From IMG/VR virus record IMGVR_UViG_3300011888_000003: a DNA stretch of 64,000 nt; one strand, given 5' to 3'. A program made the position numbers and the translations under genes. This DNA comes from an uncultured virus (IMG/VR IMGVR_UViG_3300011888_000003) (Duplodnaviria; Heunggongvirae; Uroviricota; Caudoviricetes). This document shows, piece after piece, positions 10,069 to 58,535 of this stretch. A model generated the notes under the pieces. The model had not been told where the DNA came from. It did not search any database and was given only the letters and a program-made list of their open reading frames with translations. Position 1 is the stretch's first letter. Each line of letters opens with the position of its first letter.

Positions 10069-11910
10069 TTACTTGCAGAACATTGTTGTTCCATCACATG
10101 AGAAGACATCTACGTCTTCAACCATCTCATCAGATGTCATGAGAAGGTAACGGTTACCATCGTTAAGGAGGTATCCGTTCGTGCCACCATCTTCGACGAG
10201 GAATTCGAATTCAAGACCAAGGATGACATCTGCACCGTGATGAGCGACGAGTTCACGACCATCTTGGTTGAGCTCGAATGCATAGAACTGTTGTGATGCG
10301 ACAGCCTCCATGACTTCTTCCTCTTGACGTGCCTCTTCGAGCGTTGAAGAAGCAATTGCTTCTCCGTTGAGCAAGAAGTCTTTCAACTTGATAGAAACAC
10401 CATCTTTACCAATCTGTGTTTCGTTGTACTCTTGGATGACAGCCGTATAGAACATATCATCAGAGACAAGTGGGAACGTCGAAGCAGATTTCGCATCGAT
10501 TTTGACTGGGAAGAATCCAGCTTCGAACAAGAGACCCATCGCATCTCCTTGACGAACGATTTGAACGATGTCGCCTACTCCATGCTTCTTCACTTGTTTC
10601 TTCGTGAAGAGTTCAGCAAGTCCTTCCGCACGTGCTGTAGCTGAATCGTGCGTGAAGAAGACGAACTGTGCTTCCGTTGGAGCATGGTAAACGAACGGTG
10701 TATCACTTTCGTTTGCAAGCTCCATGAGTGCCATCTTGATGCCTTTCATGAAGACGTCCCAAAGAATCGAGAAGTTCTTTGAGTCTTTCGCACCATCGTA
10801 TTGTTTGATATACGTGGCAATCGTGATTTTGAGCAATGCGTTCTCTTCGCCATGAGACTGAGCGAATTCGACGAGACCTGCTTGTTTGTGCCCTTCGATA
10901 GCTTTCGCATAGTCCTCATTTGCGAGACCGAGCACATACTTGTCGTGGTCCGTCATCGTTTTGTTGAGGAGAGATTTCTTGTCTCCTGTTGACATGTAGT
11001 CCGCAGTCCACATCTCAAGACCAGTCGACCAAGCATAGCGGTCTTCTTCACGCATACCGCTTTTGATGAACGCCTCAGAGTTCATGAGGTTGCGTTCACC
11101 GAGTGCTTTGATGGCTTTCTTTTCGAACCCTTTGCGGAGTTCGTCAATCTTCTTGAACTCAGAGATAGCTTTTGAAATCCAAGAAGAGCCAATAACTGCG
11201 CCATCTTTCATTTCTTCTTCTGTCATACCAAGCTTCTCTTTGACAGTCGTCATTTCCTCGATGAGGTTTTGGTGAATACCGAAAGCGGCAGAGCTGAATC
11301 CAGCAATCTTGTAGACTTGACGTGCGAAGTCTGCTGATGCTTGGACAGAAGAGTTACGATGCGTAACATTAATACCTGACGTCATTTTCTGACGAGCCAA
11401 GTATTCTGGTTTAGCTTGTGATACTTTCAACTCTGTATCCATGATGCTTTCTTTCTCTTTGATGATAGCGACTTTCGCCTCTACATCAGCAAGAACGTTA
11501 CGGATTTTCCGTGACTGTTGAATTTCAACAATCAACGTTGAAGATACGAACGGGCCGAGTGTCACTGAGTACGTGTACTCGACCTTCTTCTTATCGACTG
11601 TCAATCCTTCCCACATGACGATAAGAGTGATGTCTTCTTTGACGACTGTTAAGCCTTTGTTGAACGGCTCCTCAATCAATTCATAGAACGCTTGAAGCTC
11701 TTTCTCTGACGATGCGTGAAGCATGACGAAGTCTGGACCGAACTTCGCCTTGAGTGAAGCGACAGCACGCTTCACGAGGATTGCGTCGACATCAGTCAAC
11801 TCAGATGCGTTGACTTGGAAGCTATCGACGGCAAATGCTTTGCCCATGATAGCTGTGAGCTTCTCCTCCGTTGTTAATTCTTTCTTCTTACTGTTTGTTT
11901 GTTCTGACAT
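10069..11910 (-). CDS. hypothetical 613-aa protein next to the RNA polymerase gene (possible accessory subunit)
   Basis: Long ORF with AAAGGAG RBS; function inferred from position only. Confidence 0.75.
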   Translation of the reverse strand: MSEQTNSKKKELTTEEKLTAIMGKAFAVDSFQVNASELTDVDAILVKRAVASLKAKFGPDFVMLHASSEKELQAFYELIEEPFNKGLTVVKEDITLIVMWEGLTVDKKKVEYTYSVTLGPFVSSTLIVEIQQSRKIRNVLADVEAKVAIIKEKESIMDTELKVSQAKPEYLARQKMTSGINVTHRNSSVQASADFARQVYKIAGFSSAAFGIHQNLIEEMTTVKEKLGMTEEEMKDGAVIGSSWISKAISEFKKIDELRKGFEKKAIKALGERNLMNSEAFIKSGMREEDRYAWSTGLEMWTADYMSTGDKKSLLNKTMTDHDKYVLGLANEDYAKAIEGHKQAGLVEFAQSHGEENALLKITIATYIKQYDGAKDSKNFSILWDVFMKGIKMALMELANESDTPFVYHAPTEAQFVFFTHDSATARAEGLAELFTKKQVKKHGVGDIVQIVRQGDAMGLLFEAGFFPVKIDAKSASTFPLVSDDMFYTAVIQEYNETQIGKDGVSIKLKDFLLNGEAIASSTLEEARQEEEVMEAVASQQFYAFELNQDGRELVAHHGADVILGLEFEFLVEDGGTNGYLLNDGNRYLLMTSDEMVEDVDVFSCDGTTMFCK

Positions 11911-11919
11911 AGTCGAGAA

Positions 11920-11957
11920 CTCCTTTCGTACCTCATCCAGTTTCTCTGGCTTGTTGG
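11920..11957 (-). promoter_or_regulatory. conserved 5'-leader motif, copy 1
   Basis: CCAACAAG-CCAG(agaaa)CUGG-AUGAGG-uacg-AAAGGAG. Confidence 0.6.
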
Positions 11958-11962
11958 CAATG

Positions 11963-12031
11963 CGACCTATCTCATCAGTATGGGGCTGGTCAATACCCCA
12001 CAGAGCCCCTCCGAAGAGGGACTTTCGAAAA
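11963..12031 (-). ncRNA. type II hammerhead ribozyme
   Basis: UUC-GAAA-GUCCCUC(uucg)GAGGGGC-UC^-UGUGGGG(uauugaccag)CCCCAUA-CUGAUGA-GA; loop UGACC can pair with downstream GGUCG; predicted cut between 12003 and 12002; stem II is short. Confidence 0.85.
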
Positions 12032-12050
12032 GTCCTTCCGAAGAAGGACC
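12027..12050 (-). terminator. hairpin/terminator directly after the RNAP gene
   Basis: GGUCCUUC-UUCG-GAAGGACU-UUUC. Confidence 0.55.
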
Positions 12051-12056
12051 AAGAGA

Positions 12057-14876
12057 TTAAACGAATAGACGTACAGGGAAGAAGTGCTCTGATTTTGCAT
12101 GATACAAGAGCTCTTCTGGTGTTGGGTTTGTTTCAAACACATCGACGATGTGGCTGAGTGGCTCATCAAATGCTCCACCGTGTTTCGCCTCATCAATCGC
12201 CCAACGGACGATACATACCAACCAGTTAGCGATGTCTTCATAGTTACCGTACTCAACAGCAAGCAGGTAACGTTGGTGCGTCATTTCGAGCTTTTCTTGT
12301 GCATTCTCAGAGACAGCGATATCCTCTGAAAGCACGATGATGTCACGTTGGATATCAAGTAAGATATCTTCAACGTTCATCAAGCGGTTCGTCCACTTAC
12401 CGATAGACGAGACTTTCGCTGTCGCAACGATGTGAGCCGCCGCCATACGGTTGAAGACGTAGTACACGAGCTTCGCACGTTCTTCGTCGAGAACGTCTGC
12501 TTTATCGAACTTCAGTGTCCACGTGCGTGAACCGTTGACAACTTCTTGTTCGACGTTAAGCTTGTTGGCTTCGATGAAATCACCAACAAGAGCAAAGACG
12601 TCTGGTGCTTCTTCAGGACGCGCCCATGGGCAACCTCCTTCAACTTCTCCGTTTTCATCTTTGAAGAAGTCGAGCATTTTAACTTTATTTTTGAAGCTGT
12701 TGACAACATACTGGTTGAAGATAACCAAGCAAGTGTCACCGTCAAAGTCAGCGCCAGACATCGCTTCTGTCGTCATATCGACAGAGTTGAACAAGACCAA
12801 CCCTTTGAAGAATCCAGCTTTCGCCGCTTCGACGTAATAGCGCATTGCTTCTTCGTTCGCAAGCGTATCAACAGCGAGAACTTTACGGACTTCCTCTTTC
12901 TTGAGGATTGGGTAACGGACAGCGAGGAAGTAACCACGACGCAAGTTCCCTTTGCTGTCGACGACAATCGCACAACCAGCAGGGATAGAATCAACGTACT
13001 TGACGACTGGTTCTTTCCCATCGAACAGTTCATCGACAACTCCTTGGATGGCTTTCACGACCATGAAGATATCGAAGCCCATGTGACGCATTTTAGCGTC
13101 CTTGACCAAGATGCCACCTTTCTTGATTTTCTCAAGTGGCTTCGTTAACAAGTTTTGAACTTTACGTTTGACTGCCATATCCTTGATGATTTCAGGATTC
13201 GTTGAGAGCAAATTCTTGATGTCGATTAAGACATCATCCATCATGACATTCTTGTCGATTTCTTCTTCTTCGACCTCGACTTCCACTTCTTCTGCGTCTG
13301 CATCTTCATCAGCAGAAGTATCGCCTTTCTCCATCTTGTCGTAGTAGTCTGACTCGACGTTGAGGAGTTTGAGTGCCATCTTGCCGTCAAACGGTGCAGA
13401 CTTGACGTAAGATGCTGTGAACATGTTGAGAAGCTTCATGTTCTTTTGTGGGACGTCCATCGCGAGCAATGCTTGCGTTGCGACGAGTGCCATATCCTCT
13501 TCCTCTTCCATCCGTGATGCTTGGACGATAGAGAGTTTGAACGACCCATCAAGAAGCGATGGGAGAAGGTCGAGCTTCATTGCTCCATCCATGAAGACCA
13601 TGTCCGCTCCAGTCATCTGACGGAGTTTGTACGTGCCGTAAGCGAACGGCTTAAGACCATTCGCACCACGAGCTTGTACGGACTGGCCTTCGTCTTTCAT
13701 GTTGCCTTCCTGTTTGAGGTAGTAAGCTACCTCTTCAGAGAAGAGGATACCGCCATCCGTCATGTTCTTGACGAATTCGATATCTTCTTCGATGAGTTTC
13801 GGCATTTCAGCGCGTTGAACGATGACTGCACGTTCTGTTACCGTACGCATCATATCACCAATCAAGATGATACGACGTTTCCGGCCGTTGAGCATTTTGT
13901 GCTTAGACTGCAACACAGTGACGTGTTCTTTCTTGCCAACACCATTCGTGTAGTCACCCTCACGGATGATTTCCATCTCACCGAACAATGCTTCCATTAC
14001 CGTTGAAAAGCGTGACCCTGAAGCCGCCATATCCAGACGTTTCGGGTCCTTATCGATTTTGAACTTCCACTTGCCATCTTGCTCTCCACCGTAGACAGAG
14101 AGTTCGAATGACGCATTGAACCGGCTGTATACAGCAGTGACACGAAGATTGTGGTCTTTAAGCTTCTGCTCAAGAGTCGGACGGTTCGCGCGAGCAAACT
14201 CATAGAATGCCGCTTCCCCTTTCCGAGTTTGGGCTGGTGACGCCGAATTTGGCGTATAGAGAATCAATTCTTGCCCGTTGTGAAGTGCAATACCATTCAA
14301 AATGAATTTTTGAACGATTTTGGCAAGTTCGAGCAATGACATCTTGAAGAGCTTCGCGTACTGCTTTGTGAGCATGAACGCGAGTTCTTCAACGACTGGC
14401 ACAACACGGAAGTTGAGTTGCTTCGTGTTGTCGAACGCTTTAACGACAGACGTTTCAATGACTTTGCGGTCATTGTTTTGACGCGTGTACATTTCGAAAT
14501 CGTTGAACTCACACAAGTCACGGACAAGATGGTTTTCCGAGTTGCGTTGAACGAGCGTGTTCGAAAGTAAACGAGAAGTCTTAACATCAACGAGTGAATG
14601 CATAACGCCCGCTTCATCTTTTTCGAATCCACGGATGTAGATGAACGGCGTTACGTTATCACGTAATACGTATCCATCTCCTTTAAGCGTCAACATTTTA
14701 CGAAGAGCCGCGACACGTTGTGCTTTCTCTCCTTCAATTAAGACTGTCTCGCCGTTAACGATAAATGCCAGCACATATTCGCGTGCTGACAAGTTGAATG
14801 ATGGTGCCTTTGGTCCGTGATGACGAACCTTAATCTCTGCGTTTACTGCCTTTTTGAAACTGTTTGATACTGCCAT
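12057..14876 (-). CDS. YonO-like / cellular-RdRP-like single-subunit two-barrel RNA polymerase (939 aa)
   Basis: Ordered motifs SPAQTRKG, TDGGILFSEE, SVQARG..GLKP, AVRYP, MSGADFDGD (12735-12749), IGKWTN and AIDEAKHG. Confidence 0.88.
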   Translation of the reverse strand: MAVSNSFKKAVNAEIKVRHHGPKAPSFNLSAREYVLAFIVNGETVLIEGEKAQRVAALRKMLTLKGDGYVLRDNVTPFIYIRGFEKDEAGVMHSLVDVKTSRLLSNTLVQRNSENHLVRDLCEFNDFEMYTRQNNDRKVIETSVVKAFDNTKQLNFRVVPVVEELAFMLTKQYAKLFKMSLLELAKIVQKFILNGIALHNGQELILYTPNSASPAQTRKGEAAFYEFARANRPTLEQKLKDHNLRVTAVYSRFNASFELSVYGGEQDGKWKFKIDKDPKRLDMAASGSRFSTVMEALFGEMEIIREGDYTNGVGKKEHVTVLQSKHKMLNGRKRRIILIGDMMRTVTERAVIVQRAEMPKLIEEDIEFVKNMTDGGILFSEEVAYYLKQEGNMKDEGQSVQARGANGLKPFAYGTYKLRQMTGADMVFMDGAMKLDLLPSLLDGSFKLSIVQASRMEEEEDMALVATQALLAMDVPQKNMKLLNMFTASYVKSAPFDGKMALKLLNVESDYYDKMEKGDTSADEDADAEEVEVEVEEEEIDKNVMMDDVLIDIKNLLSTNPEIIKDMAVKRKVQNLLTKPLEKIKKGGILVKDAKMRHMGFDIFMVVKAIQGVVDELFDGKEPVVKYVDSIPAGCAIVVDSKGNLRRGYFLAVRYPILKKEEVRKVLAVDTLANEEAMRYYVEAAKAGFFKGLVLFNSVDMTTEAMSGADFDGDTCLVIFNQYVVNSFKNKVKMLDFFKDENGEVEGGCPWARPEEAPDVFALVGDFIEANKLNVEQEVVNGSRTWTLKFDKADVLDEERAKLVYYVFNRMAAAHIVATAKVSSIGKWTNRLMNVEDILLDIQRDIIVLSEDIAVSENAQEKLEMTHQRYLLAVEYGNYEDIANWLVCIVRWAIDEAKHGGAFDEPLSHIVDVFETNPTPEELLYHAKSEHFFPVRLFV

Positions 14877-15360: not shown

Positions 15361-15398
15361 TCCCCTTTCGCCCTCATCCGGTTTCTCCGGCTTATTGG
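15361..15398 (-). promoter_or_regulatory. conserved 5'-leader motif, copy 2
   Basis: CCAAUAAG-CCGG(agaaa)CCGG-AUGAGG-gcg-AAAGGGG. Confidence 0.6.
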
Positions 15399-15520
15399 AT
15401 GTTCTTATCTGGTAAGACCTCCCTATTGAAGCAATAGAGAAGCCTTATACAAATAAGAACCCCCTATATAGACCCCCCTTTATAGAGGGGCCTTATATAG
15501 AGGGCCTTTATATGGACCCC

Positions 15521-16096
15521 TTAATAGAGGACCATCTTTACAGGACAGCCCGAATACAGGCTGTTTAACGCAAACATGCAGTTATTTCGACCGTTCTCCT
15601 TGCACAAGATATACGTCATGATGCCTTGTGCCCGTGCCTGATTAATATCCATTTCTTTTACATTCAAGCCCATATGCTGTGCCATATGGTAAATCAACCG
15701 TGAGTTAGCATACACAGTTTTATATCCTTGCTCCTTGATGTGCTCTAAGAACTCGACTAACTGTGGGTGCACCTTAACGTACATGTCGTGTACATATTCC
15801 TTATTGTTCATGCTAATATCAAACGACAAGAAGGCCCCTTCTGCATGAGGCTTCTGAGGACCAGTGCCCTCCACCATGCGCTTGACGATTGCATGGTGCA
15901 TCTTATTGTTTAAGATGAATGCCTTGATTTCACTATAAGATACTTGGCATAGATGGCTTTTCTTACCCATGAGACGTGCCGCATCAGCCGCTCTACCCTT
16001 CTTAGCGAACGCATATACAGGGAAGGTTAAACCTTCAATTAGCGTTGGTAATACGAACTGAGTAGTAGTAGCAGTAGTAGTAGTGTTGTTTGTCAT
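15521..16096 (-). CDS. hypothetical protein with Thr-rich N-terminus
   Basis: ORF; start MTNNTTT placed after the AAAGGAG RBS. Confidence 0.75.
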   Translation of the reverse strand: MTNNTTTTATTTQFVLPTLIEGLTFPVYAFAKKGRAADAARLMGKKSHLCQVSYSEIKAFILNNKMHHAIVKRMVEGTGPQKPHAEGAFLSFDISMNNKEYVHDMYVKVHPQLVEFLEHIKEQGYKTVYANSRLIYHMAQHMGLNVKEMDINQARAQGIMTYILCKENGRNNCMFALNSLYSGCPVKMVLY

Positions 16097-16105: not shown

Positions 16106-16141
16106 CTCCTTTGTCCTCATCCAGTATCCCTGGCTTATTGG
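16106..16141 (-). promoter_or_regulatory. conserved 5'-leader motif, copy 3
   Basis: CCAAUAAG-CCAG(ggaua)CUGG-AUGAGG-ac-AAAGGAG. Confidence 0.6.
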
Positions 16142-16181
16142 TATACATATAGGCCCCCATATAGAGGGCCATATATATGAA

Positions 16182-18384: not shown

Positions 18385-19089
18385 ATGGCAGAACAAGAGA
18401 AACGCAAGGAAGAGCTTTCACTGCTCGCTCCACGTGCTTATATGAATGTACAGAAAGAAGAACTTCCTTCCTCATGGAAATTGAGTGAGCAAGGAATTGA
18501 AGCGATTAAGTTCGGGGTTGCGATGAACAAGACGAAACATGGCATGTATGCGTCCATCCCAATGTTGTGTAAGGCAGAGGAATGCCAATATGCAGATATA
18601 TGTCCTATCCTTGACCAAGGATACAATCCAAAAGGAGAACGCTGTCCACTTGAAATCTCATTGATTCTGACGAACTTTGATAACTATAAGAAAGAGTTCG
18701 AGACGAAAGATGATGATATCGTAGACATGAGCTTCATCAAGGACTTGATTGACTGTGATATCCAACTCATGCGTGCTGAGAACAAGATGGCATTAGAAGG
18801 AGACTTCGTGCAAGATAACGTCGTCGGTATGGGGGAAGACGGAGAACCTATCGTCCAGAAACAAATCTCGAAGGCTTCTGACTATAAGGAACGTATCATG
18901 ACGAAGAAACACAAGATTCTAGAATTGATGCATAGTACCCGTAAGGATAAAGCCGGTAGCAAGCTCACGATGACGATGGACCCATCGAGTTATGCGGCAA
19001 GTCTCTTAAAAGAGAAGGAATCCGCACCAGGTCAAGTCATTGATGCTGACTACCTAGAGAGTATCATGATTGAAGATGAGGACGAATGA
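18385..19089 (+). CDS. Cys-rich protein, candidate terminase small subunit
   Basis: KHGMYAS followed by C-x4-C-x5-C...C and a helical C-terminus; first large gene of the packaging cluster (positional inference). Confidence 0.45.
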   Translation: MAEQEKRKEELSLLAPRAYMNVQKEELPSSWKLSEQGIEAIKFGVAMNKTKHGMYASIPMLCKAEECQYADICPILDQGYNPKGERCPLEISLILTNFDNYKKEFETKDDDIVDMSFIKDLIDCDIQLMRAENKMALEGDFVQDNVVGMGEDGEPIVQKQISKASDYKERIMTKKHKILELMHSTRKDKAGSKLTMTMDPSSYAASLLKEKESAPGQVIDADYLESIMIEDEDE

Positions 19090-28202: not shown

Positions 28203-28232
28203 CCTATCACATTATGAAAAGAGGAACTACAT

Positions 28233-39901: not shown

Positions 39902-39921
39902 AAATCAAGGAGGAATAATAA

Positions 39922-41502: not shown

Positions 41503-41563
41503 AAGACGCGGGGGCTAGACCCCCCTTCTTATATAAGCAACCTTTTGAAGGAGGAAAATGATA

Positions 41564-42145: not shown

Positions 42146-42193
42146 GAACGGGAGGGGAGGAAACTCCCCTCTTTTTTAATAGGAGGAATACGT

Positions 42194-42703: not shown

Positions 42704-42715
42704 GGAGGTTCTCTA

Positions 42716-47600: not shown

Positions 47601-50600
47601 AATGGATTCCATCCAAACTATTGAATGTCGCAACCGGTGGAGCACTCACGGACTTCCGTAGTCCTGAAGAATTACAAGAGTACTATGAATCGGGCGAAGA
47701 TGCGATTCGCAAAGGGCGCTACTGGAGTATCGGCTCGACGACTCCTTGGTTCGGTGGCAAGATAGAACGCTGGCAACCCAACTGGTATCGCCGCATGAAA
47801 TCCGATTACAAGTTCAGTGAGAATGGACTTGGTTCAGAATCGGAATACTTTGCTAACAGTTGGATGCCGACGCTGACCCACCCACTTGCACCACTGCGTC
47901 ACTTCATTTTTGACCGTTATCACTATGAAAACAAGTTGAAAGACGAACGTCCATTCGCTGTTACAGGTGGATTCGCCGAGCTCGACAACATTCCGTTGTT
48001 CGGACCATTGATTGATGACACGGTCGGTCGTCTCATCAAACCACGTCTCGTTGACCCAAGGCTAGAGAAGTCACACCGTGAATACTTAGAAGCATACAAT
48101 GAGCGTCTTGCTTCGGCTTATATGGGTGCTAATAGTGGGGCGATATTGGAAGGTATGCCTTCAGGTGGCATCAATCGAATCGATGATGCGGTCAACGTCG
48201 ACCTCGGAGAAGCAGGTGGCATCGAAAGCCCGATGTATGAAGGAGATATCTATAGCTCTGGAGCGCTCTCAGAAGGCGTCGTAGGCGCTTCTGGCTCTGG
48301 TGGGGGCGTAGGTACTGGTAGTGGTGCAGGAGGCTCAGGAGGACGTACTACGGTCAATGACGTGTCTCGAAACGATTTAGCAAGCTTGAATGCATCGATA
48401 TCGGCGACAACGTCTCCGACAAGTCGAGGTATTAGTAGTGTGGATGGTATGCGTGACCCGAACGTCCTCTATGATTTAGACAATGCCATCTTCAAGGATA
48501 GCTTGACGAACCTACAATATGGTTCGTACCGAGACGTCTTCTACAATGCATCGGAGATTGCCGGTATCTTTGGTTTCGCGACGAAAGCAACGAGTGGGTT
48601 CGAAGAGGGTGGACGAGGTGCGACGTTACAAGATTCGAGTCTTATGGGGTCTTATAACAAAGCATTCTGGGACATGGAACTTGGTGGACTCGGTGGAGAT
48701 ATCTCCGAGATTGCCCGTCGTTACCTTGCTCGTGACCCGAACAAGAACTATTACAACCCGATTCGGAACAATATGCCTGAATTCATGCCTGGGGCAGAGT
48801 ACTTTACGGACTTCAAGCATGGGGACCCGTACTCGAAAATCAGTGCTGGTTTGATGCGACTTCCTGGTGAGGCATATGAAAAGTTGTATTCGGTCAAGAA
48901 GGATGAATACGGGAACTACTCGGCGCTCGACCGCTTACGGATTCTGGGTGACGTCGCGCCGTACTCTGACCAGTACCGAATGGCAAAAAAACAAGTGTCT
49001 CTTTTAAACAGTAATGGACTGTTGTCTGAAGAAGACAATGAAGAATATAAAACGATTCGAGAACAGGTCAAACAAAAGAAAGAAAAGAAACATTTCTATG
49101 ACCGGAAGTTCAACAAGGCTGACCTTGATAAAGAGACAGTCACGGTCACGAAAGTACTCGATGCGAACACGTTCGTTACAAAAGAGTACGGTGAAGACAA
49201 TCCAATTAAGCTCGCTGGTGTCCAAGTCAAAAACAGTGACCAAGAAACGGTCGACTTCATTCGTCAGTTTATCTATGAAGGGGCACGGGTCAAGGTCGGA
49301 CTTGATGCCGACCCGCTCTTCCGTGAACGCGACGACTTGATGAATACGATGCGTGCCGTCGTCTACACGAATCACAATGAAGAAGGCAATCCATTCTACT
49401 TAACGAACAAGGGCGCCAACTTGAACTTCATGCTCGCGAACCGTCCTGAGACGAAAGATAAGGTCACGATACGTGATGACGGGACAGCGGTCGCAACAGC
49501 GGCACTCTATACGAAAGAACAAATCACAGTAGGTCGAATGTACGATACCGTTGTCCGTGATATCTTACCGCAACTTCCGATTGCTGGAGTATTCGCGGAT
49601 AAGTTCTTACAAGTTCGTTCTCCTGTCGAATCATATCGCCGAGAACTCTACGGAAAGTCATGGCGTGACTGGGCAAGCCCATGGTCTGGCTGGATTGAGC
49701 CGATGGTTGACACCATTGCTTCTCGTAACCCGATTATCGCCGCCGCCGAAGGATATGGTATCGGATATATGTTCGGTCGAAATCGTTCCGGTGGGATGAT
49801 TGGTCTTGGTCTTGGTGCAGTGACTGGTCTTCTTGCGACGGCTCGCACCGTCAAAGAGATTGGAAGCGATATCGTTGGTAGTGATACAGCATCAGTACCT
49901 GGTCGCCGTCAAAAAGAACGAGAGATGGATGAATACTTCGATAAGCTCAAATACGTCAAGTTCAAAGGACTCTATGAGAGAGCGGCTGACATGGCCCTTG
50001 AACAAGAAGGATTCGATGTACGGGGTTATATCGAAGAACAAGATGAACGAGGTAAATCAAATAAGGGATTAAAGAAATATATCCAAGAACAGAAAAAGAG
50101 GTTGTCGATTCAGAAGAAAAGTGGTTATGGTGACATAGAAGTCCTTCGAGCAGAGCTTCGAGGGCATAATGAAACCTTAAAAGAAATCAATGATACCCGA
50201 CCTCAACAAAAAGTCGGACCGCTTGCGGCGCTTGCTCTTCGTTATAAACAAGAATATGAAGCGACGATTTACGCGGCAGATGAGAACATCAATTTCCAAA
50301 ACATCTATCGTGCACTTCCGGCAAAAGACCGTGAGTATTTCACGAAGTTTTTAGAAGCAGGACCAGAAGAACGAGAAGAGATTCTACGACTCGTTCCACA
50401 GTATCAACGTGCCATCTATCAAAAGTCATGGGGACTTGAACCAGACAAAAAAGAAACGCTCGTCCAGTACTTCAAGAAACATCCTCTTCCAAAAAGCAAC
50501 TGGGAAGGATGGCAAGCAAGTAAAAGTCTTGATAGCGTCCGTGTCAAAGTCATGCAGAACGAAGGCATGGAGCTGACGGAAGCGAACTATTGGGATGATG

Positions 50601-50836
50601 ACGAGGCACGTGCGATGCAATCAAATGCGAAAGCCATCCCAATCAATGGTGGGGGCTCGCTCGATATCGACCGGCTCCAGAAAGTACTCAAAGGAGCAGG
50701 ACTAAAGGACGTCCAAGTCTCCATGAGTACGATTCAAGGAGATGGCGGCATCAAAGCTCAAATGGATATCCAACTAGATAGAACGAAAGAAGTATTAGAG
50801 GGTATGACGAGCAATTGGCAAAACTTATTCAGTTAA
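44618..50836 (+). CDS. giant virion protein (2072 aa), tape-measure/ejection-type, with an SNase-like OB segment
   Basis: Follows the chaperones; hydrophobic Gly-rich segments; VTKVLDANTF...IKLAGVQ near 49145-49225. Confidence 0.6.
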   Translation: MADMRDFQREQQKQEQSSHLSGLIKVSAVGAIGYGAVKYRHTIAAPLVRRAMESKTLGRTGNILSDAFGRGETFINALGTKPGFNSFVRNAMDPSDFERRTRIAYRAQQAARNQEGQLKNAPRLARRTMEHISSEKSLHHEAIKMARVQYGKQAVKENKALEPYLGQGLERMLIDDGMFSRRTTQQGVVRFLDKYSGEKAKKTSNFHLDFSGQPEGAKESFVDELFNTLHQTTSRIGRKYDKETGGLILNKAMSDEEKKFVRDRIEVLGKLEFNALMKSTTTEANASFMNNSMALQGFDVLRGKDFANGANKELYNQLMPIDRSNGKRKRLDFLQEIRRNAERYGESPDIVNEMVIDGSWYINRKTNKIIDGSNVERRADKGVEFLRNNFQVPFLNFNPIDLIQYSSIKASKDAPLFRVFKEGQTMAFANKQIFDMESKTFSNAYETADSNMLKRNSNAAVTPLAKDYAYSGNASYDIDTLVDNLNKVKGDITKLDVNTGKIEDNLILVSNEFGVPKRFTESMAGVTQHDGEIGLLRAIWGGRQENESIGGRIKRGLTKGNNPDYGPNLLDALKGKQSVLEVEETYNRMTSLLSRGTRGMSHDAHYFWGEELNKSMNKAYGIDIDFARMGASEEYTIDVAQQLSNVIAGRKKMPEEDMALIGGAQRKVLDIFENYNKEQALFMRQQTTAPDKSLISSEFINIASVGYDRLIPQTEDLRKSIEQLSLASYRRATGKTIEETMNEGLKNGMVRAPEIQETLDLQNLTRLESFGSRIKNEDIDVSTEGLKEFKSTFNQGTAYESMMGSMKRKDPAFGPGPGDEIVEHYGKDVHFQMIKRHRGMLETINQGIEDFAGENGSYAEKAYGVAHGVGDYFGHLFASNKKMENVTAGTMVPWFFASRLDDAMAQLGLGLGNNLRGSAMSIIMNQWARRIVLPYVAYQQAMYFDGLTGDTISDTAADGYVNMQMDTAKVKEKLGINDIGRSWSRVFAGTDQMAEWIPSKLLNVATGGALTDFRSPEELQEYYESGEDAIRKGRYWSIGSTTPWFGGKIERWQPNWYRRMKSDYKFSENGLGSESEYFANSWMPTLTHPLAPLRHFIFDRYHYENKLKDERPFAVTGGFAELDNIPLFGPLIDDTVGRLIKPRLVDPRLEKSHREYLEAYNERLASAYMGANSGAILEGMPSGGINRIDDAVNVDLGEAGGIESPMYEGDIYSSGALSEGVVGASGSGGGVGTGSGAGGSGGRTTVNDVSRNDLASLNASISATTSPTSRGISSVDGMRDPNVLYDLDNAIFKDSLTNLQYGSYRDVFYNASEIAGIFGFATKATSGFEEGGRGATLQDSSLMGSYNKAFWDMELGGLGGDISEIARRYLARDPNKNYYNPIRNNMPEFMPGAEYFTDFKHGDPYSKISAGLMRLPGEAYEKLYSVKKDEYGNYSALDRLRILGDVAPYSDQYRMAKKQVSLLNSNGLLSEEDNEEYKTIREQVKQKKEKKHFYDRKFNKADLDKETVTVTKVLDANTFVTKEYGEDNPIKLAGVQVKNSDQETVDFIRQFIYEGARVKVGLDADPLFRERDDLMNTMRAVVYTNHNEEGNPFYLTNKGANLNFMLANRPETKDKVTIRDDGTAVATAALYTKEQITVGRMYDTVVRDILPQLPIAGVFADKFLQVRSPVESYRRELYGKSWRDWASPWSGWIEPMVDTIASRNPIIAAAEGYGIGYMFGRNRSGGMIGLGLGAVTGLLATARTVKEIGSDIVGSDTASVPGRRQKEREMDEYFDKLKYVKFKGLYERAADMALEQEGFDVRGYIEEQDERGKSNKGLKKYIQEQKKRLSIQKKSGYGDIEVLRAELRGHNETLKEINDTRPQQKVGPLAALALRYKQEYEATIYAADENINFQNIYRALPAKDREYFTKFLEAGPEEREEILRLVPQYQRAIYQKSWGLEPDKKETLVQYFKKHPLPKSNWEGWQASKSLDSVRVKVMQNEGMELTEANYWDDDEARAMQSNAKAIPINGGGSLDIDRLQKVLKGAGLKDVQVSMSTIQGDGGIKAQMDIQLDRTKEVLEGMTSNWQNLFS

Positions 50837-50868: not shown

Positions 50869-50890
50869 ATTCAAATTGGAGGAATTCATT

Positions 50891-53800
50891 ATGGCGAAAC
50901 GACAAGACTTAGAACGCATCAATCTCGATGCCTCAAGAAGTCATCAGCTGTTTGGTATCGGAAAGAACTCAAACCACTTCGGTGCAGATGAAGAATACAT
51001 TACACAAACAGATAAAATCCTTGAGCTTATCAATGCAGATGAATCGACACCTGCTGAGAGAAAGGCATGGGCTTCGATGGGTGCGTTCCAAGGTGACCGT
51101 TTCTCAAGCGGTCAAGGTACGTATGAAGCCTTGATGGGTATCAACAATGCATCAAAGATTGCCGTCTGGGACATGGAGACCATCGGGACACCGGATTTCA
51201 TGCGAGAAAATGACCTGGCACGAGGCAAGAAGAACGTGGCAGACTTTTTCAGCGTGACGGAGATTGCGATGAAGACAGTAAACGGTAAAGGAAAGACGAC
51301 GAAAGCAAGCCAAGAACTTTCGATGCTCATCCGTCCTTCGAAATCTGCTCTTGAAAAACTAGAAGAAACGGTCGCACAACTCGATAGAGTCGGTTGGATT
51401 GGATTATCGGAAGACATGCGCCGAACACTTTCTGATATTACACAATATGGGAAAGGAGCACAGATTCGAAAAGAAGGCGATATCACCTATCTTGATGGAC
51501 ATGGTACGAAGTTCAAGGAAGTTGCTCTAGGAAGCAAGAATGGACGAGCACAGATTGAGCATGCGATGAATACTCTTCGACAAGCGACACCGATTGAGAA
51601 AGCGTTGATGATGATAAATGAAGTCGTTGACGAAAAGACAGTCTTAGCAGGGCATAACGTCCATGGATTTGACCAACGCGGAATGCTCGATGTCCTGAGC
51701 GCAACAAAACAACATTTCAAAGATAGCCCGACACAATACAAAGCCATCGACCGATTGCATCAAAACATGCAACGGGCACAACTGGATACACTCGAATTCT
51801 TCCGTACATATTATGAAACACCATTGCGTGACTTTGGTGGGAACATGACGCTAGGAAACTTGTATCGAAACTTATCAGGGAAGAAAAGTGAGAATGCCCA
51901 CTTTGCGTTAGCCGACATCAACATGAACATCTCGTTGCTTCAAAAAGCATTGAAGGATGGGAAGAACACACGTGCTGTTCAAGCATTGAAGCGTTTATCG
52001 AAGAACACAGTCAATGTCGGACAAGTCTATTATTCAGAGCGGGGTATCGGGGGCGACGGCAAATACGATGGGATTTACGATAAGAACGAACAAGGGAAGT
52101 TCATTCGTGCGCGTGATTTTCGTAGTGCCGCCATCAATAAGAACAATCAATATGAAGTCGTCTCTGAAATCCAGAAGATGCAAATCGATGGAACGGACAA
52201 GTATGGTATTACATTACTAAATAAAGATACAGGATATTATCACCAGATTGTACGAGACCGTTTTGATGACATTGCGAACATCTTCCAAAAGAACATGACG
52301 CTTGAAAGCAATATACCAAAAGCACAACGGGAGCAACGGAGCGCGACGACAGCAAAAGACCGTGCACGCCGTGAATACTTAAAACTATTCGACGTAGCGG
52401 AATCAAAAGGAGTCGAACGACTCAAGAAGAACTATGCTTTCCTCGATGCGTATGATTCAGCCATCGACCAGATGCGTGAAGGCGGCAGTGCGATAAGCAA
52501 TGATACACATCAACTTGCCTTGAAGAACGCATTAGGTGTTATCAACAAAGGTGTCGATGAACAGTATCAAGTTGGTGAGAACTATGGGAACAATGTCGTT
52601 AACATGCGAGGACGTCTCGATGCGGAACGTGCCATCTGGGAACAAGCGATTGACCGTATTGAAAAAGAAGATTTCCATTACACGTTCACGAAAGATGGTA
52701 AAAACGAACGTCACGTTGATAAGAAAAAACAAACGTTAGCCCTTTCCAAGATTCAAGAACAATTAGAAAGCATGGGAACTGGAGAACGAGAGCAATATGC
52801 GACACCTGGTCGTCGTGTGATGACGATGACGATTGCCGGACAAGTCCGTAATTTTGATTTAAGTGACCGTACCGCCTTCATCTCTTCGATGTCGAACGTT
52901 CTGAAGAAGAAAGGAAACTTGAATGAAGCTCGTAGCATTCTGATGGAAGTCATCACGAAAGCTGAACAAGAAGGTATGATTTCTGCCAACCAGCGAAAAG
53001 CTTATCTGAAAATGGCAGAAGCCCGATTCTTAAAGAACCAAGGTCTTCAACCGAACGAATTGACACGTATCTCAAAAGCGCTCTATGAATCAACACGAAA
53101 CGGTGTCTTGAGTCCACGTGTATTACGTGGAAAGAATGCTGTCCCAAGTGAAGTGATTCAAGGAGAACACGGGACATATCTTCGTCCGATTCAACAAATC
53201 ATGCAAAATGAATACATTGAAGGGACTCCGATTACGAAATCACCGATTGGCTCCGTCGCACATGAATTGACGACGACAGGGGTAACGGGACAACACGGGA
53301 AACTCTTTGCAGAAGATGTCATCCGTAGTGCGATTGAACAAAGCAAAGGATATACGAAATATAATATCAGCGAACAAATCTTCTTGAATGCACCAAAGAA
53401 TGTCAAAGAACGACTCAAGGAGCATGAAGCAGGAGTCAAGATGGCGCTCGAACGTTCAGGATTGGTGAACCTACCTAAGATGAACTTATCCTTACCGAAT
53501 GGCACAGGGAAAGAAAGCAATACGATTGAAAGCAAGGTCATTGCTCTTGCGAATCAATATGGTCAAAACTTTGGTGTTCGTGTCGACTTCGATAAAAAGA
53601 CGAACAAGATGTTTATGTTCTTAACCGACAAGACAAAAGCAGAGAGCATGATGGGAATGAGTTTTGATGAGGCGCGTGCTTCAAGAAGCGTCGCACATTT
53701 CGAGATTCCGATGATGCGACCTGATGGAACGATTGAGATGAGTGGACAACAATTCGTCGGTCGATTGAGCTCTCGTGTTGGAAGTGGGAATAACTTAAAA

Positions 53801-56800
53801 GTCACGAACGTCTCCGATGAGTTCTTTGAAGAGATGAAACGGCATGCGAATTACTTGAATCAAAGTGTTGAAGAAGGAATCAAGGCAGGGACACCATTGA
53901 CGGCTGGAGATATCCATGCCCGCATCAATGGGAAGATTCGTTCGATTCGTGAAGGGTTGATTACGAACCACAGTCGTTTCGAAGCAAACCCTGAAAAAGA
54001 ATACCGTCGAAAATCTCGTCTTGCGAACCATAACCGTGCGACACAAATTGATGTCACAGGAATGGCAGAACCTTGGTTCGCTGACAATCAACATAAGTTC
54101 AAAGAAGGACGCATCGAAAAGATTCAGCAACGAATGAAAGAAGAAGGCATCAGTTTCTTTGATGCGATGAACCGTGTCGAGCAAGGAACCTTCCATCGTG
54201 AGATTGACGGGTATTACAATGAACACTATCTTGCAGGAACAGGTGCGAAAATCAGTCAACACGGTCTATCGGACTCACAAGCACTCCGAGGTATTCGTTC
54301 GACAGTCGATAACCGTGACTACTTTGCTTTTGGTGGACTCAACCCGACTGCCCGTGAGAACTTGAACAAGGCGATGAACTATCGTGCACTCGCGGACACC
54401 GATGATGAAATCGGGGCATACAAGAATCGCTTGATTCAACACACAGGAGATAGTCGTGTTGCTCACCGTGCTTTGACGGGTCTATCGATGACGGAACTCG
54501 GAAAAGAAATCAAGGGCAATGAAATCAGTCACTTGAATGTGCGGACAGCACTATCAAACGAGCTCCAAGTGAGTTCGATGGTGAAGGGTGCTATTTCAAA
54601 CGTCGAAAATGATATCAAATCCCTTGAAGCAAAAGCCAACTTAACAGATGGTGAAAAAGTCAGATTGCAAAGCTTGCATACGATTCGAAAAGAATTACAA
54701 AATGCATCACAAATGTCGATTCATGATGGGATGATTATCGCCGCGAAATCATTGCAAGATTCCTTTGCGGTTAAGCAACAGACGTCCGTCGACATCGGTG
54801 TTCAGAATCGCCTTGACCCTCGCTTGAAAGCTTTGATGGAAGAAGCAGGATTCTTCACGGAACAAGGACTAGCAAAAGCAGGAGNNNNNNNNNNTAGGAA
54901 AGGAAATCACGTTCAATCAATTGGAGCAAGCAGGGCTCATTCAAAAGACACAAGGTGGATATCGTCTGACAGTCGGAGAGCTTGTAAAGATGAATAACGG
55001 AGAGCTGTTCACACAACGAACAGGAGAGTTCAAGAACTGGCACAAAGACTTTTCCATCACAGGATTTGATGCAGATAGTGGCAAAGCCATCATTGATATC
55101 AATGACAAAGCAGGGCAAGGAAACAAGTTCATTCTCATGAGTGGTGGACGTCATACGGCGCACTTCGTTTCCGATGGTGCACTTGAATACATGCTTGGTG
55201 ACTCTGAAGTCAAAGCCATCGTCCCTGAAGTCGAGATGAAGAAGAAAATGGGTGGTACGTATATTGCCGGTGTCGTCAATGCCCATGTGTCTGAAATCAC
55301 ACGACAATTGACAGGAGAAGTCGAAGCGAGTGATGCCATCAAGCAGTTGGCTCAAAAACATAAGTATACGATTGGGGATTTAAGCCAAGCAGGACTTCAT
55401 GATGCTATCCTCGAAGAAGCAATGGCGCCAGGACTCAAAAAACTTGGAGTGGCAGGAGCATATCGCTTTGATGGTGGTAGCCTCATCCTTAATAAAGAGT
55501 GGAGCAAAGGGTTCGGCGAAGGAACCGATATCTTATCAAACATTGAAGGATTCGAAAATGCCGTCACCGCTGTATCTGGTTTCCAACGTACATCGAAGAA
55601 TGGTACGTATGAAGTCATCAATGAAGGGTTCGGGAAACATGATATCTACACGTACGAATCGACAGGTGAGAAAACCCGTGTGGGCAAGAAAGAATTGAAT
55701 GTTCTTCGAAGTATCTATGGTGATAGAAAGAGTGCGATTCCTGAAAAGATTGTCGGGGGAGCAGACTTCACGCACTGGTTCGAACAAGACATGAAGGCAA
55801 GTCAACTTCATGCAGAAGAAACCGGTTCGATGATGAAAAGCTACTTTGACATGATAGAAAAAGGAGGACCAGGGAAAGGAGATGTTGTTCTTGACTTCTC
55901 TGGAGAGACGGTTGGTAACGACGTCAATAATGTATTCAAGAAGAATGGTGTGAAATATGTCGATGGTGATGTCGTCCATAATACACGAAAAGCGATTACC
56001 GCTCGTGATATGGTCATGCTCGGGGAAGACTATGCTGGAAGTATCATCAACTATAAAGGTTCAAACATTTTGATGAATGGTGAGGAACGTAGAATTCAGG
56101 ATATCGCTAAAAAAGGGACATACTTGAAGCTTCCTGAAATCTTCGGAGAAGACCGATTCGTACCGATGATTGATACGTCTCACTTGTCACGGATGGATGA
56201 ATCGGAGGCAATGCTTCTTGAAGTCCAAAAGAAACAATTGCGTCTCTACGGAGAACTTGAAAAGTTCCGTAACCTTGGAAAAGGAACAGGAACAGAAGAA
56301 GAGCTCCTCGCAATCCGTGATAAGCTCGTAGGTAAAATCGAGACCAGTGTCACAGAACTAGAGAAGACGACAGGGCAGTTCATGAGTGAAGCACGTGATG
56401 GCGGAGCACTCAAAAAATTGACATCGGCGAAAGTCAGTAACTCTGGTCAGTTCCGAGTGCAGACCATCAATCCGTTCGAGAACAACAGCATGGTCGATGG
56501 AGAATGGAAAAACACAGGACCATACAAAGAAGGCACGATGTATATGTCTCGTGAACGTGTCAAAGAATTGATTCATGGAAATGAAAAAAATGTTGCAAAA
56601 GTCATTCTTTCTGAAGCAGAAATCGAAGACCATTATACTCGGATGACAGAATATGCTTATGACAATTTTGATGATGAGATGCTCCAAAAGCATAAAAAGA
56701 ATCTTATTGGCATGGCAGAAAAACATTCAGGTGAAACTTTGATTGATAAAGCACTGGATAAGATGACCCTTGGTCAAGGGGATGAGGGGCTTTATGGGAA

Positions 56801-58535
56801 CGTACTTCGTAACCCGACCATCTCCGACTCGACGATGCAAGCTCAAAAAATCATGATTGACCCGACGATGGCTTCGGATGACCGACGGGCTCTCGTATCC
56901 GTCGGAACATTGAAACTGATGGCCGCCGATACCGATGGTGACGTTATCAATGCCATGTTGAACCATTACAAATCAGGTGAAGCGCAGAAGTGGCATAACG
57001 TCATCAAGGAACGTCATAAGTACACAGCGCTTGATGCGATGGGGAAAACAAATGACATCATGAATGATTATCGAGAAGACCTCATCAATACATATGAAGC
57101 GAATGCAAAATATGCTGATGGAAACATGAATGTCTCTCGTGCTGAAATCGAGAAACAAGTCGACTTGATGATTCAAGACAATCAAGCAGGCAAACAGACG
57201 ACGGTACAAGCCCTCGTCCGAAATGGATTCGATAAAAAAACGGCACAGAACTTCTTAAGCAACAAGATGACTTTGGATGAAGACATCATGGCTGTCGAAT
57301 CCCGTCAAGGTAAAGGTGCTGTCGGACCGATTGATAACTTGCGTGAACGGATGCGTGAACTGCATACGATGACACAAGAAGCCCTTGTGGGCGGAGGCGT
57401 ACTCGATGCAGAAGAAGCACGACGCAATAGCTTCATCGTTCAAAAGTTCGGTTCTACTCTTTCCCAAGAACTTATCTCTTCCAAGAAATTGACGATTGAT
57501 AAGTATGCGGCAGAAGTCGAAGGAGAAGGAACGTATACGACGAAAGAAGAAATCCGAAGAGAAGCACAGGCTCGAATGAAAGCCCGTCATGAAAAAATCA
57601 GTGACATCCAAAACATGCTTCGCAATCCAAGTGCTCAGAACATTGATACCCTTCGGACAGAGCTTGATGCCCTTGGTATCTTCAGCAGTGGGACGGAGAT
57701 GTATCATGGAGAACGTGTCCAAAAGTCAGAGATTTTAGAGACAGGGTTAAAAGAACTCCGCATGATGCAAGAGTTGAATCAACGCCAAGGTGGATTAAGT
57801 GCCGATGCCTTGTCCATCAATGAATCGACAGGTATCAAAGATTCCAGTCGTATCCGTGAAGCAACGCTTGGAAACAACTTTATGCCGACATCAACGAACC
57901 GTGCGAGTTATGCTCATCTCTATGACAACGGTGAAGAAGTATTTGACCAGGCAAAAGAAAAATGGAACCAGAGCGTTTTGAATAAATACATGGACATTCA
58001 AGCGGCACGGGAAACCGTCAATGACCAGATATTGCGAGCAGACCAACAGCCGTTCCGTTCCATCAGTGAAATAGAACGACGTGGAGGTGGATTCATTTCA
58101 GGTGCGACGTCCGATGCACTCGGTTCAGCCAAGCGTGCGACAAGCACAGCGTTTGATGGTCTAAAGGTACAAAAGATTGCACCTGTCGCGGCTGTGTTCG
58201 GTGCGATATGGGGTGCAAGTGCGATGCTTCGTACGGCACCGACACCAGAAGGATTAGAAGAACAACAACGTGCGGCTCACGTAGAAGTTGCACCAGAGCA
58301 GATGTTGACTTCCCCTACAGCAAGGGTTACAACTAATCCAGAGAGTACGATGTTGCGAATCAGCGGGCGAGGCACAGGTGGTCTTGACCACAATGCACTT
58401 GCTGGTATCGTCAACTCTGAAATTCAACAGATGAAAGGTATGGCATTGGATATGAACGTTAATCTCAATGACAATACCGCAAAAATAACGAATAGCTGGA
58501 TACAGCAAAAACTGAATGAGTCATTGAATCAGTAA
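50891..58535 (+). CDS. putative virion single-chain two-barrel RNA polymerase with N-terminal DEDDh exonuclease (about 2,550 aa, one gene across an N gap)
   Basis: WDMET, GHNVHGFD and HFALAD; then beta-like and beta'-like motifs ending in RNPT...MAADTDGD (56928-56942); both reading frames are open up to the gap. Confidence 0.75.
54885..54894. other. assembly gap (10 N)
   Basis: Run of n characters; true length unknown. Confidence 1.

Follow-up and report, generated by a model that had tools for sequence, protein, structure and literature searches.

Does one phage encode two distinct RNA polymerases, and could these act in succession so that its transcription is independent of the host enzyme? 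The question is raised by a 64,000-nucleotide stretch of DNA from an uncultured tailed phage (hereafter the window), in which a YonO-like polymerase gene occupies the leftward arm and a second polymerase-type motif, ADTDGD, lies in the virion module, downstream of genes named by PHROGs as portal, major head protein, sheath and tube. The window is best explained as the left part of the genome of a jumbo phage with a contractile tail, belonging to the lineage of Bacillus phage 0305phi8-36. The full genome, of which the window represents 64 kb, is probably larger than 200 kb, and sigma factors or further polymerase genes could sit beyond the window. Three relatives are in culture. Features are listed in Table 1.

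Table 1. Positions of the features discussed, in window coordinates, and the evidence for each.
Feature	Position	Strand	Evidence
GGCC-TTCG-GGCC hairpin, 12 copies between small leftward genes	1212..8613	-	most followed by a T-run, terminator-like
Two conserved genes downstream of the YonO-like gene, 613 aa and 447 aa	8648..11910	-	order retained next to the L004 polymerase (42% identical)
Leader stem-loop copy 1, upstream of the 613-aa gene	11931..11952	-	motif count
YonO/QDE-1-type single-chain RNA polymerase gene, 939 aa	12057..14876	-	hhalign to YonO/gp99 alignment; QDE-1 structures
GADFDGD metal-binding motif of the YonO-like enzyme	12735..12755	-	translation; invariant in 9/9 homologues and in distant set A7
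Leader stem-loop copy 2, upstream of a 105-aa gene	15372..15393	-	motif count
CCYCTATAWA(GG) palindromic motif cluster	15461..15530	.	7/20 matches here; two more at 16154-16167
Conserved upstream neighbour of the YonO-like gene, 199 aa	15521..16120	-	L004 homologue in equivalent position
Leader stem-loop copy 3, upstream of the 199-aa gene	16115..16136	-	motif count; L004 copy upstream of homologous gene
Orthologue of 0305phi8-36 gp145, 2,072-aa tail giant	44618..50836	+	BLASTP E 3e-107, 36% identity
One gene for the ~2,549-aa giant in the tape-measure slot	50891..58535	+	collinear tblastn of P0010; homologue lengths; gp145/gp147 flanks
N-terminal DEDDh 3'-5' exonuclease domain of the giant (predicted)	51158..51941	+	PDB profile; PHROG 192; catalytic motifs
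Beta-prime-type catalytic barrel region of the giant (predicted), LRNPTIS ... ADTDGD	56694..57056	+	profile A6 vs PDB; PF00623; invariant residues
ADTDGD motif of the giant	56925..56942	+	translation; inside virion module
C-terminal module with hydrophobic segment, common to 0305phi8-36 gp146	57990..58535	+	hhalign A2 vs gp146
Orthologue of baseplate hub gp147, runs off window end	58557..63998	+	BLASTP E 2e-31; PHROG 20474 at 1.5e-111

The product of the leftward-arm gene is a single-chain RNA polymerase of the YonO/QDE-1 type, its catalytic motifs intact, for which a two-barrel fold and DNA-dependent RNA synthesis are predicted; the original prediction of a YonO/RdRP-like enzyme at this position is borne out. 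Alignment of the protein with its homologues (A1) matched, by hhalign, an alignment of an SPbeta-type YonO homologue, Perkons, BUCT082, 0305phi8-36 gp99 and others (A8) over 516 columns (Prob 98.6%, E 1.4e-15), and the three A8 members scanned all exceeded the Pfam RdRP cut-off (2e-23, 5.3e-16 and 1.2e-18). A profile of the distant YonO-like set (A7) reached the QDE-1 structures 5fsw_A (4.8e-6) and 2j7n_A (4.1e-5) in PDB. Upstream of GADFDGD in the second barrel lies an RxP motif (R654, P656), also invariant in A7; the basic residues R403 and K409 of the first barrel are invariant in A1 and align to the R...KG motif of A8, and IDEAKHG is a further invariant of the family. Against Pfam PF05183 (RdRP) the window protein scored below the curated cut-off (E 1.2e-4, 21.4 bits; cut-off 23.8), and matches to this model in 9/9 close homologues had a best E no better than 1.2e-4. 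Close relatives formed nine clusters only, among 5.8 billion, and tblastn against 50,697 phage records gave zero matches. The gene stands alone near the start of the leftward arm, with hairpins on either side. Its 613-aa and 447-aa neighbours had zero Pfam or PHROG matches, and family searches with the 199-aa upstream neighbour gave none.

The gene carrying the second motif is interrupted in the record by a run of ten Ns (54885–54894), and it is because this run splits one gene that the open reading frame at 54921–58535 is not a gene of its own: it is the C-terminal half of a giant tail protein. Protein P0010 (2,544 aa, 90% identical) is collinear with the window by tblastn (residues 1–1330 with 50891–54880, residues 1333–2544 with 54897–58532), and the long homologues were single proteins in 10/10 cases (2,466–2,545 aa). 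The giant family comprises 62 credible clusters, with 46/62 falling within 2,334–2,564 aa (median 2,463), and takes in the cultured Bacillus phages KLEB27-3, WH1 and Edson. A fibronectin-repeat protein from the representative search, P0081, was removed as a false positive, and a profile scan of genome contigs with the giant alignment (A2) found zero relatives. The giant is flanked on one side by the tail chaperone pair and the gp145 orthologue and on the other by the orthologue of the hub gp147. These flanking genes recur in three relatives (KLEB27-3, WH1 and G004), and the homologues in KLEB27-3 and WH1 carry structural-protein annotation. Gene order supports this as the place where an ejected protein would sit. 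Comparison of A2 with gp146 of 0305phi8-36 by hhalign yielded a single match, covering the final ~180 residues (E 5.9e-4), and it is this weak C-terminal match (Prob 29%), taken with position, that suggests a virion location for the giant. Matching at its C-terminus alone and having no DxDxD, gp146 was rejected as a member of the giant family.

Two catalytic-looking domains were recognised in the giant. The N-terminus is confidently predicted to be a DEDDh (DnaQ/RNase T-type) 3'-5' exonuclease domain: its profile matched 9l8b_A (E 5.2e-7) and Exonuclease I (6e-4) in PDB and PHROG 192 at 3.6e-8, motif I reads VWDMETIG in the window translation, and the N/D of motif II and H/D of motif III are kept in 21/21 full-length rows. 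The Pfam RNase_T score, 21.1, fell below the cut-off of 24.

On profile evidence, the C-terminal half contains a homologue of the catalytic barrel that multisubunit RNA polymerases carry in beta-prime/RPB1, and its DxDGD is invariant. The best RNA polymerase match of giant profile A6 in PDB was phiKZ gp55 (7ogp_A, E 1.2e-4), followed by RPB1-homologue chains (0.011) and the beta-prime chains 7s01_d and 7s00_d (0.033–0.036), and matches to RNA polymerase large-subunit chains always spanned NRxPT...ADFDGD. The signature has two parts, RxPT and, after ~40 residues, DxDGD; R638, P640, D678, D680, G681 and D682 are invariant across 24 aligned rows, and RxP...DxDGD is kept in 58/62 family representatives at identities down to ~15–25%. 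When hhalign was restricted to barrels, the giant aligned with the YonO-like protein in the catalytic barrel only (Prob 62%, E 7.4e-5, 85 columns), and whole-family comparison with the YonO-type alignments was not significant. Pfam PF00623 was found in 8/26 members (E 1.6e-4 to 0.013), all below the curated cut-off of 25.3 bits, and the giant of the window itself did not match it. Single-sequence and shallow-profile searches of PDB returned nothing save one beta-prime chain at E=2, a PDB search with the DFDGD region of G004 gave zero matches, and only one fragment was recovered when the polymerase-like half was sought as a shorter protein on its own.

A two-barrel architecture for the giant is putative, one barrel being recognisable. 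Among the 23 PDB hits of its profile at E<=10 there was no beta-subunit chain and no detectable similarity to QDE-1 and, judged by hit names, none was from P23-45 or crAss-like phi14:2; four other segments of the giant, compared by hhalign with the first-barrel region of the YonO-like protein, gave Prob <=0.2%. Similarity between RNA polymerase families is, as described in the P23-45 paper (PMC10770324), often confined to the DxDxD region. Of the beta/beta'-like single-chain polymerase originally predicted here, the ADTDGD motif, its place in the virion module and a beta-prime-type barrel stand, whereas no beta-like barrel was detected. The two polymerase-type genes do belong to different lineages, as had been proposed, the YonO-like profile leading to QDE-1 and the giant profile to phiKZ gp55 and beta-prime/RPB1 chains. 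In the literature covered (on KLEB27-3, on 0305phi8-36 with RNA polymerase, and on two-barrel, tape-measure and virion RNA polymerases) the giant family is nowhere described as a polymerase; the alignments of 23 RNA polymerase families in PMC10770324 lay outside this comparison.

Repeated cis-elements, of which at least two classes had been noted earlier, occur far above chance. There were 15 matches to AGGGCCTTCGGCCTT against 0.74 expected (0/100 shuffles reached 15), three to the stem-loop AAGCCRGRGAWACYGGATGAGG against 0.01, and 20 to CCYCTATAWA against 6.0; in all, at least three motif classes are found, in different parts of the leftward arm. Among four copies of the leader stem-loop, a stem position varies between A-T and G-C. 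Phage-specific repeats are conserved in L004, the relative with a 42%-identical polymerase, where a hairpin related to GGCC-TTCG-GGCC occurs six times on the gene strand. Sigma-70-like sites showed no enrichment in the first 20 kb (26 in 1–20 kb against 27.2 +/- 6.2 expected).

The two polymerase-type genes need not occur together. The complete relatives KLEB27-3, WH1 and G006 have the giant and lack the YonO-type gene: PF05183 finds no match in them, and the giant is their sole open reading frame with a polymerase-like DxDGD; the giant therefore does not need a YonO-type partner. The reverse is seen in 0305phi8-36, which has the YonO-type gp99 and, in the slot, a gp146 without DxDxD. Both genes are present in G004 (complete, 213 kb): its YonO-type protein matches Pfam RdRP at 2e-23, and its slot giant, of 3,161 aa, has the same N-terminal module as the window giant, with RYP...DFDGD. 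The pairing of two RNA polymerases put forward for this phage is thus not obligatory, one of them often being missing in relatives.

The reading that we prefer, tentatively and at somewhat less than an even chance, is that the window phage combines a YonO-type RNA polymerase with an ejected tail giant bearing a polymerase-like domain, and that the two act as a cascade; the cascade is proposed on the basis of sequence, and independence from the host is conjectural, the window covering 64 kb of a genome that is probably larger than 200 kb. The giant would be housed in the tail and leave it together with the DNA, whereupon its polymerase-like domain would produce the earliest transcripts, starting from the entering end in the manner of P23-45 gp96, while its exonuclease may act on nucleic-acid ends during entry. 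A later class of genes would then fall to the YonO-type enzyme, in keeping with the role of YonO in SPbeta. A broader proposal, which we consider unlikely, is that these giants (~2,450 residues, 62 clusters) constitute an undescribed family of injected RNA polymerases, of the phiKZ gp55/RPB1-like multisubunit lineage rather than that of YonO or the crAss-like phages and uniquely fused to a DEDDh exonuclease, which, in phages of this kind, set off a programme run entirely by the phage through transcription of an unrelated YonO-type gene.

It is somewhat unlikely, though well worth weighing, that the YonO-type enzyme is the sole working phage RNA polymerase. The giant would then be a structural, ejected, tape-measure-like protein whose barrel and exonuclease grip, pull or trim the end of the genome as the DNA enters, or attack host nucleic acid; the host polymerase would make early transcripts, including that of the YonO-like gene, whose product would then read the late genes. 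Such a role is consistent with the single barrel detectable in the giant and with its tightly kept length, as expected of a ruler-type tail protein. Moreover, the slot protein of 0305phi8-36 lacks DxDxD though that phage has a YonO-type gene, and it was assigned as tape measure by Hardies et al. (PMC2147016); YonO itself is described as transcribing SPbeta late genes (Forrest et al. 2017, PMC5467207). Retention of RxP...DxDGD at such low identities is nevertheless hard to explain without catalysis, the giant is the only polymerase-like gene in three complete relatives, and the leftward genes show no local excess of sigma-70-like sites.

That both enzymes are active without forming a cascade appears distinctly unlikely. 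Each would have its own promoter class, the injected enzyme reading, for example, a few entry genes and the host polymerase expressing the YonO-like gene, so that the host polymerase would be needed for part of the programme. This would accord with the occurrence of either gene without the other in complete relatives, with the spread of at least three motif classes over different parts of the leftward arm, and with the dependence of P23-45 late genes on the host polymerase (PMC10770324). The YonO-like gene, however, is among the first leftward genes, beside CTATAWA and stem-loop motifs, as expected of an early target, although the sequence itself does not separate this arrangement from a cascade. 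It is very improbable that the acidic motif ADTDGD arose by chance or convergence, in a tail protein that has no relation to polymerases: DxDGD does arise by chance in unrelated small proteins of the relatives, and all Pfam matches of the giant are sub-threshold, but RxPT and DxDGD with their ~40-residue spacing align to a common region in several independent large subunits of RNA polymerase and to the barrel of the phage's own YonO-like protein, and the motif is invariant in 24/24 aligned rows.

If the giant is an active polymerase, as the cascade reading has it, transcription enzymes borne in the tail extend beyond a single Thermus phage: they would be a solution found recurrently among contractile-tailed jumbo phages of Firmicutes, drawn from another polymerase lineage and combined with a nuclease. 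This would bear on the ways in which large phages free themselves from host transcription, and on how two-barrel polymerases evolved early on. If it is not, a strongly conserved, catalytic-looking domain in a tail protein still calls for explanation.

Among known systems, 0305phi8-36 shares with the window its virion-gene order and a YonO-type gene, gp99 (treated in Hardies et al. 2007, PMC2147016, and Iyer et al. 2021, PMC7824862), that like the window gene is stand-alone and early in the leftward arm. The window enzyme is homologous to SPbeta YonO and gp99 across the 516 aligned columns and has the same MSGADFDGD-type site (PMC5467207, PMC2147016, PMC7824862), but is very divergent, falling below the Pfam RdRP cut-off. 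The slot protein gp146, a 2,537-aa 'hypothetical tape measure protein' identified in the virion by mass spectrometry according to its GenBank record, occupies the same gp145–gp147 slot at near-equal length and has the C-terminal ~180 residues in common with the giant, but has no DxDxD and no exonuclease or polymerase-like region detectable against the giant profile.

Jumbo phages of the phiKZ/AR9 type, which provide in gp55 the best solved match to the giant's catalytic barrel, are described as using one packaged and one non-packaged RNA polymerase (PMC7824862). Their enzymes, packaged in the head, consist of four to five subunits in which beta and beta-prime parts can be recognised, whereas the window giant is one chain, in the tail slot, with the catalytic barrel alone recognisable. 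The gp66 protein of crAss-like phi14:2 resembles the giant as a virion-module protein of >2,000 aa containing a DxDGD-type two-barrel RNA polymerase with similarity limited to the motif region, but gave no sequence match in the giant's PDB search, and phi14:2 is a podovirus. To our knowledge, no exonuclease domain is reported for gp66, and we know of no second polymerase in phi14:2. The structure of this virion enzyme is PDB 6VR4, as cited in PMC10770324.

The closest parallel is the Thermus phage P23-45, in which a virion two-barrel polymerase fused to the tape measure (gp96) transcribes the gene of a non-virion, single-subunit two-barrel polymerase (gp64; Chaban et al. 2024, PMC10770324), so that the earlier remark that no characterised phage with this pairing was known to its author is superseded. 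In both phages, by prediction in the case of the window, a giant protein of the tail slot contains a DxDGD polymerase domain, and the early region has its own separate gene for a single-chain two-barrel polymerase. P23-45, however, is a long-tailed siphovirus whose polymerase forms the N-terminal part of a tape measure of 5,002 aa, whereas the domain lies in the C-terminal half of the window giant, which is known from sequence alone and in which, unlike in P23-45, a DEDDh exonuclease accompanies the polymerase-like domain. The two P23-45 enzymes are paralogues of one clade, whereas those of the window phage are QDE-1/YonO-like in one case and nearest to phiKZ gp55/RPB1 in the other. A cascade passing from a virion to a non-virion polymerase is already known from P23-45, and the window phage would be a further version of that scheme.

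Profile comparison places the YonO-like gene in the YonO/QDE-1 clade, as a divergent member whose catalytic signatures are all intact, as the original prediction of a YonO-type RNA polymerase bearing GADFDGD had proposed. Direct family scans gave weak matches: 21.4 bits (E 1.2e-4) to Pfam RdRP, whose cut-off is 23.8, then 3e-8 to PHROG 8308 and 0.005 to PHROG 4291 ‘RNA-dependent RNA polymerase’. Membership was settled by matching a 9-member alignment of the protein family to one composed of an SPbeta-type YonO homologue, Perkons, BUCT082, gp99 of Bacillus phage 0305phi8-36 and three metagenomic proteins (Prob 98.6%, E 1.4e-15), with 516 aligned columns spanning both barrel motifs. A broader profile matched the solved QDE-1 polymerase (E 4.8e-6). 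Relatives of the protein formed only 9 clusters in 5.8 billion, and tblastn against the phage collection gave no match. The 199-aa neighbour on the upstream side of the gene and the two on its downstream side (613 and 447 aa), for which scans returned no family match, keep their order in a relative with a 42%-identical polymerase (L004). A YonO-type gene was already known from the 0305phi8-36 lineage: gp99 is reported by Hardies et al. 2007 (PMC2147016) and included in the list of Iyer et al. (PMC7824862). The DUF1273-like gp97 of the same phage lies two genes away. Distant YonO-type polymerases bear additional DNA-binding-type domains, namely an N-terminal Rho_N domain (1.1e-6) in that of the complete phage G004 (L006:8009-11779) and HTH and sigma-70 region 4-like matches at both ends in another (L009:8501-11182); such domains could be intrinsic modules for recognising promoters or nucleic acids.

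At least two classes of repeated cis-elements had been predicted, and three real classes were found. The GGCC-TTCG-GGCC hairpin, which also recurs in L004, had 15 matches in the window against 0.74 expected, and terminator-like sites within 1–20 kb numbered 41 (16.5 +/- 3.7 expected). The leader stem-loop matched three times against 0.01 expected; one stem pair alternates between A-T and G-C across four copies, one of them in L004, where it lies ahead of the homologous gene. GGACATATCC, a fourth motif, is found three times exactly, each after a hairpin, and, with GACACATCC, is a candidate phage-specific promoter of short single-gene units; no enrichment of sigma-70-like sites was found.

Features of the window, with coordinates in nucleotides unless stated otherwise
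Feature	Position	Strand	Remarks
GGCC-TTCG-GGCC hairpin, twelve copies	1.2-8.6 kb	- (gene strand)	between small genes; T-run after most
Further hairpin copy	19245-19285	opposite to ORF	inside rightward ORF 19086-20096
Leader stem-loop CCAAyAAGCC-R-G...C-Y-GGATGAGG	~20 nt ahead of start codons		three genes around polymerase gene
CCYCTATAWA(GG) palindromes	15.46-15.53 and 16.15-16.17 kb		clustered
GGACATATCC and GACACATCC motifs	993-8294, e.g. 5213-5222, 7017-7026, 8012-8021	-	soon after terminator hairpins, ahead of small genes
185-aa protein	3600-4157	-	weak YpsA/DUF1273 match, E 1.7e-4, below cut-off
YonO-like ORF	12057-14876	-	939 aa
GADFDGD of YonO-like ORF	12735-12755	-	from translation
Terminase large-subunit gene region	21692-25721		heavily interrupted
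Intein-like insert between terminase segments	ORF 21692-23422		PHROG terminase matches at both ends
Group I intron	23380-23963		88 bits
HNH-type endonuclease ORF	24509-25387		PHROG 4645, 4e-60
Group I intron	25280-25626		58 bits
Metallophosphoesterase/DNA-repair-exonuclease-like gene	26889-29123	+	PHROG 7339, 4e-40; in head module, immediately ahead of portal gene; preceded by 437-aa acidic coiled protein with weak SbcD_C match
Sheath paralogue, sheath, three tandem tube paralogues	37749-43489	+	likewise in 0305phi8-36; all three tube paralogues match PHROG 9206

The leftward genes occupy the minus strand at about 1–16.9 kb. The long rightward block (18.4–64 kb) runs terminase, portal, major head protein, sheath paralogue, sheath, three tube paralogues, chaperone pair and three giants, and the virion gene order is that of 0305phi8-36, gene for gene. 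The 2,072-aa protein is the orthologue of gp145 (BLASTP E 3e-107) and the last, truncated giant that of the hub gp147 (BLASTP E 2e-31); the ADTDGD protein between them occupies the exact slot of gp146. Mass spectrometry detected gp146, of 2,537 aa, in virions, and its annotation is that of a hypothetical tape measure (PMC2147016). Unlike the giant family, gp146 is without DxDxD, and only its last ~180 residues are in common (E 5.9e-4, Prob 29%). In KLEB27-3 and WH1 the family member has the same flanks, as does a 3,161-aa variant in G004 (213 kb). The tape-measure slot is therefore occupied by giants that are interchangeable and share a C-terminal module; the window's giant would be located in the tail. 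The closest cultured relatives, as judged by this protein, are the Bacillus jumbo phages KLEB27-3, WH1 and Edson (~24% identity; 3/50,697 records); the host of KLEB27-3 is Bacillus australimaris. The nearest record, of 26 kb, has a completeness rating of 11%, so that the complete phage is probably larger than 200 kb.

The gene for the giant is listed as two ORFs (50876-54997 and 54921-58535), with a run of ten Ns (54885-54894) between its halves that shifts the frame. P0010, a 90%-identical homologue of 2,544 aa, is collinear with the window across this gap, where it has 6 bases and the window 16; the long homologues are single proteins in 10/10 cases (2,466–2,545 aa), and KLEB27-3 gp034 is one gene (2,434 aa). 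It is therefore a single gene, with about 2,549 codons, and its split looks like a scaffold-gap artefact rather than a real frameshift. When 1.84 billion representatives were searched exhaustively with a profile, 63 proteins were recovered at E<=1e-3, one of which, a fibronectin-repeat protein, was dropped as a false positive; 46/62 were longer than 2,300 aa (range 2,334–2,564, median 2,463).

A profile from a 24-member alignment of this family was compared with solved chains in the PDB. The N-terminus matched DEDDh exonucleases (9l8b_A, 5.2e-7; Exonuclease I, 6e-4), with the exonuclease N/D and H/D residues kept in 21/21 full-length rows. The C-terminal half matched large subunits of RNA polymerases at their catalytic barrel, best phiKZ gp55 (7ogp_A, E 1.2e-4), and also four ‘RPB1 homolog’/RNAP-subunit chains, presumably of African swine fever virus (0.011), and 7s01_d and 7s00_d, both named ‘beta-prime subunit’ and presumably from phage AR9 (0.033–0.036). 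The aligned stretch was every time NRxPT, ~40 residues and ADFDGD. Pfam RNA_pol_Rpb1_2 was matched in 8/26 members scanned, all below cut-off. R638, P640, D678, D680, G681 and D682 are invariant in the 24 rows, and RxP...DxDGD is present in 58/62 representatives, the remaining four being three fragments (315–410 aa) and the weakest full-length match.

The giant had been described as a beta/beta-prime-like single-chain polymerase. The beta-prime-type catalytic barrel is supported, but no sequence signal of a second barrel was obtained: no beta-subunit chain appeared among the solved-chain matches, and segments of the giant other than the barrel bore no likeness to the first barrel of the YonO-like enzyme (Prob <=0.2%). 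The giant and YonO-like barrels compared on their own gave Prob 62% and E 7.4e-5 over 85 columns, while the whole-family comparison was not significant. The missing second-barrel signal is uninformative, because the DxDxD region is often the only detectable similarity between RNAP families (PMC10770324), but ‘two-barrel’ is for this protein a putative label. Odds are about even for the key claim, namely that the giant works as an injected polymerase.

Each of the two polymerase-type genes is able to exist without the other. G004, rated 100% complete, has both: the slot giant carries RYP...DFDGD, its N-terminal 650 residues matching the giant family (Prob 98.7%), and the YonO-type protein has 1,257 aa (Pfam RdRP 2e-23). 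KLEB27-3 (217 kb), WH1 (230 kb) and G006 (264 kb, rated 100% complete) have a slot giant with DxDGD and no YonO-type gene, in the sense that neither a PF05183 match nor a further polymerase-like ORF with DxDGD was found; 0305phi8-36 (219 kb) has gp99 and, in gp146, a slot giant without the motif. Edson has the giant and was absent from the records matched by either of two YonO-type queries. One IMG/VR sample contained both genes, on separate contigs. By the original prediction's own criterion, such separability weakens an obligatory cascade, although a cascade may still operate in the window's phage.

The original prediction knew of no characterised phage with this particular pairing, but the logic of its cascade is demonstrated in the Thermus phage P23-45, where the gene for another phage polymerase is transcribed by an injected one that is itself a fusion with the tape measure (PMC10770324); YonO was likewise already known as a late-gene polymerase (PMC5467207). 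What appears to be new, within the literature searched, is the tape-measure-slot giant family as such, its apparent combination of a beta-prime-type barrel nearest phiKZ gp55 with an attached DEDDh exonuclease, and its pairing, in some cases, with a YonO-type enzyme unrelated to it.
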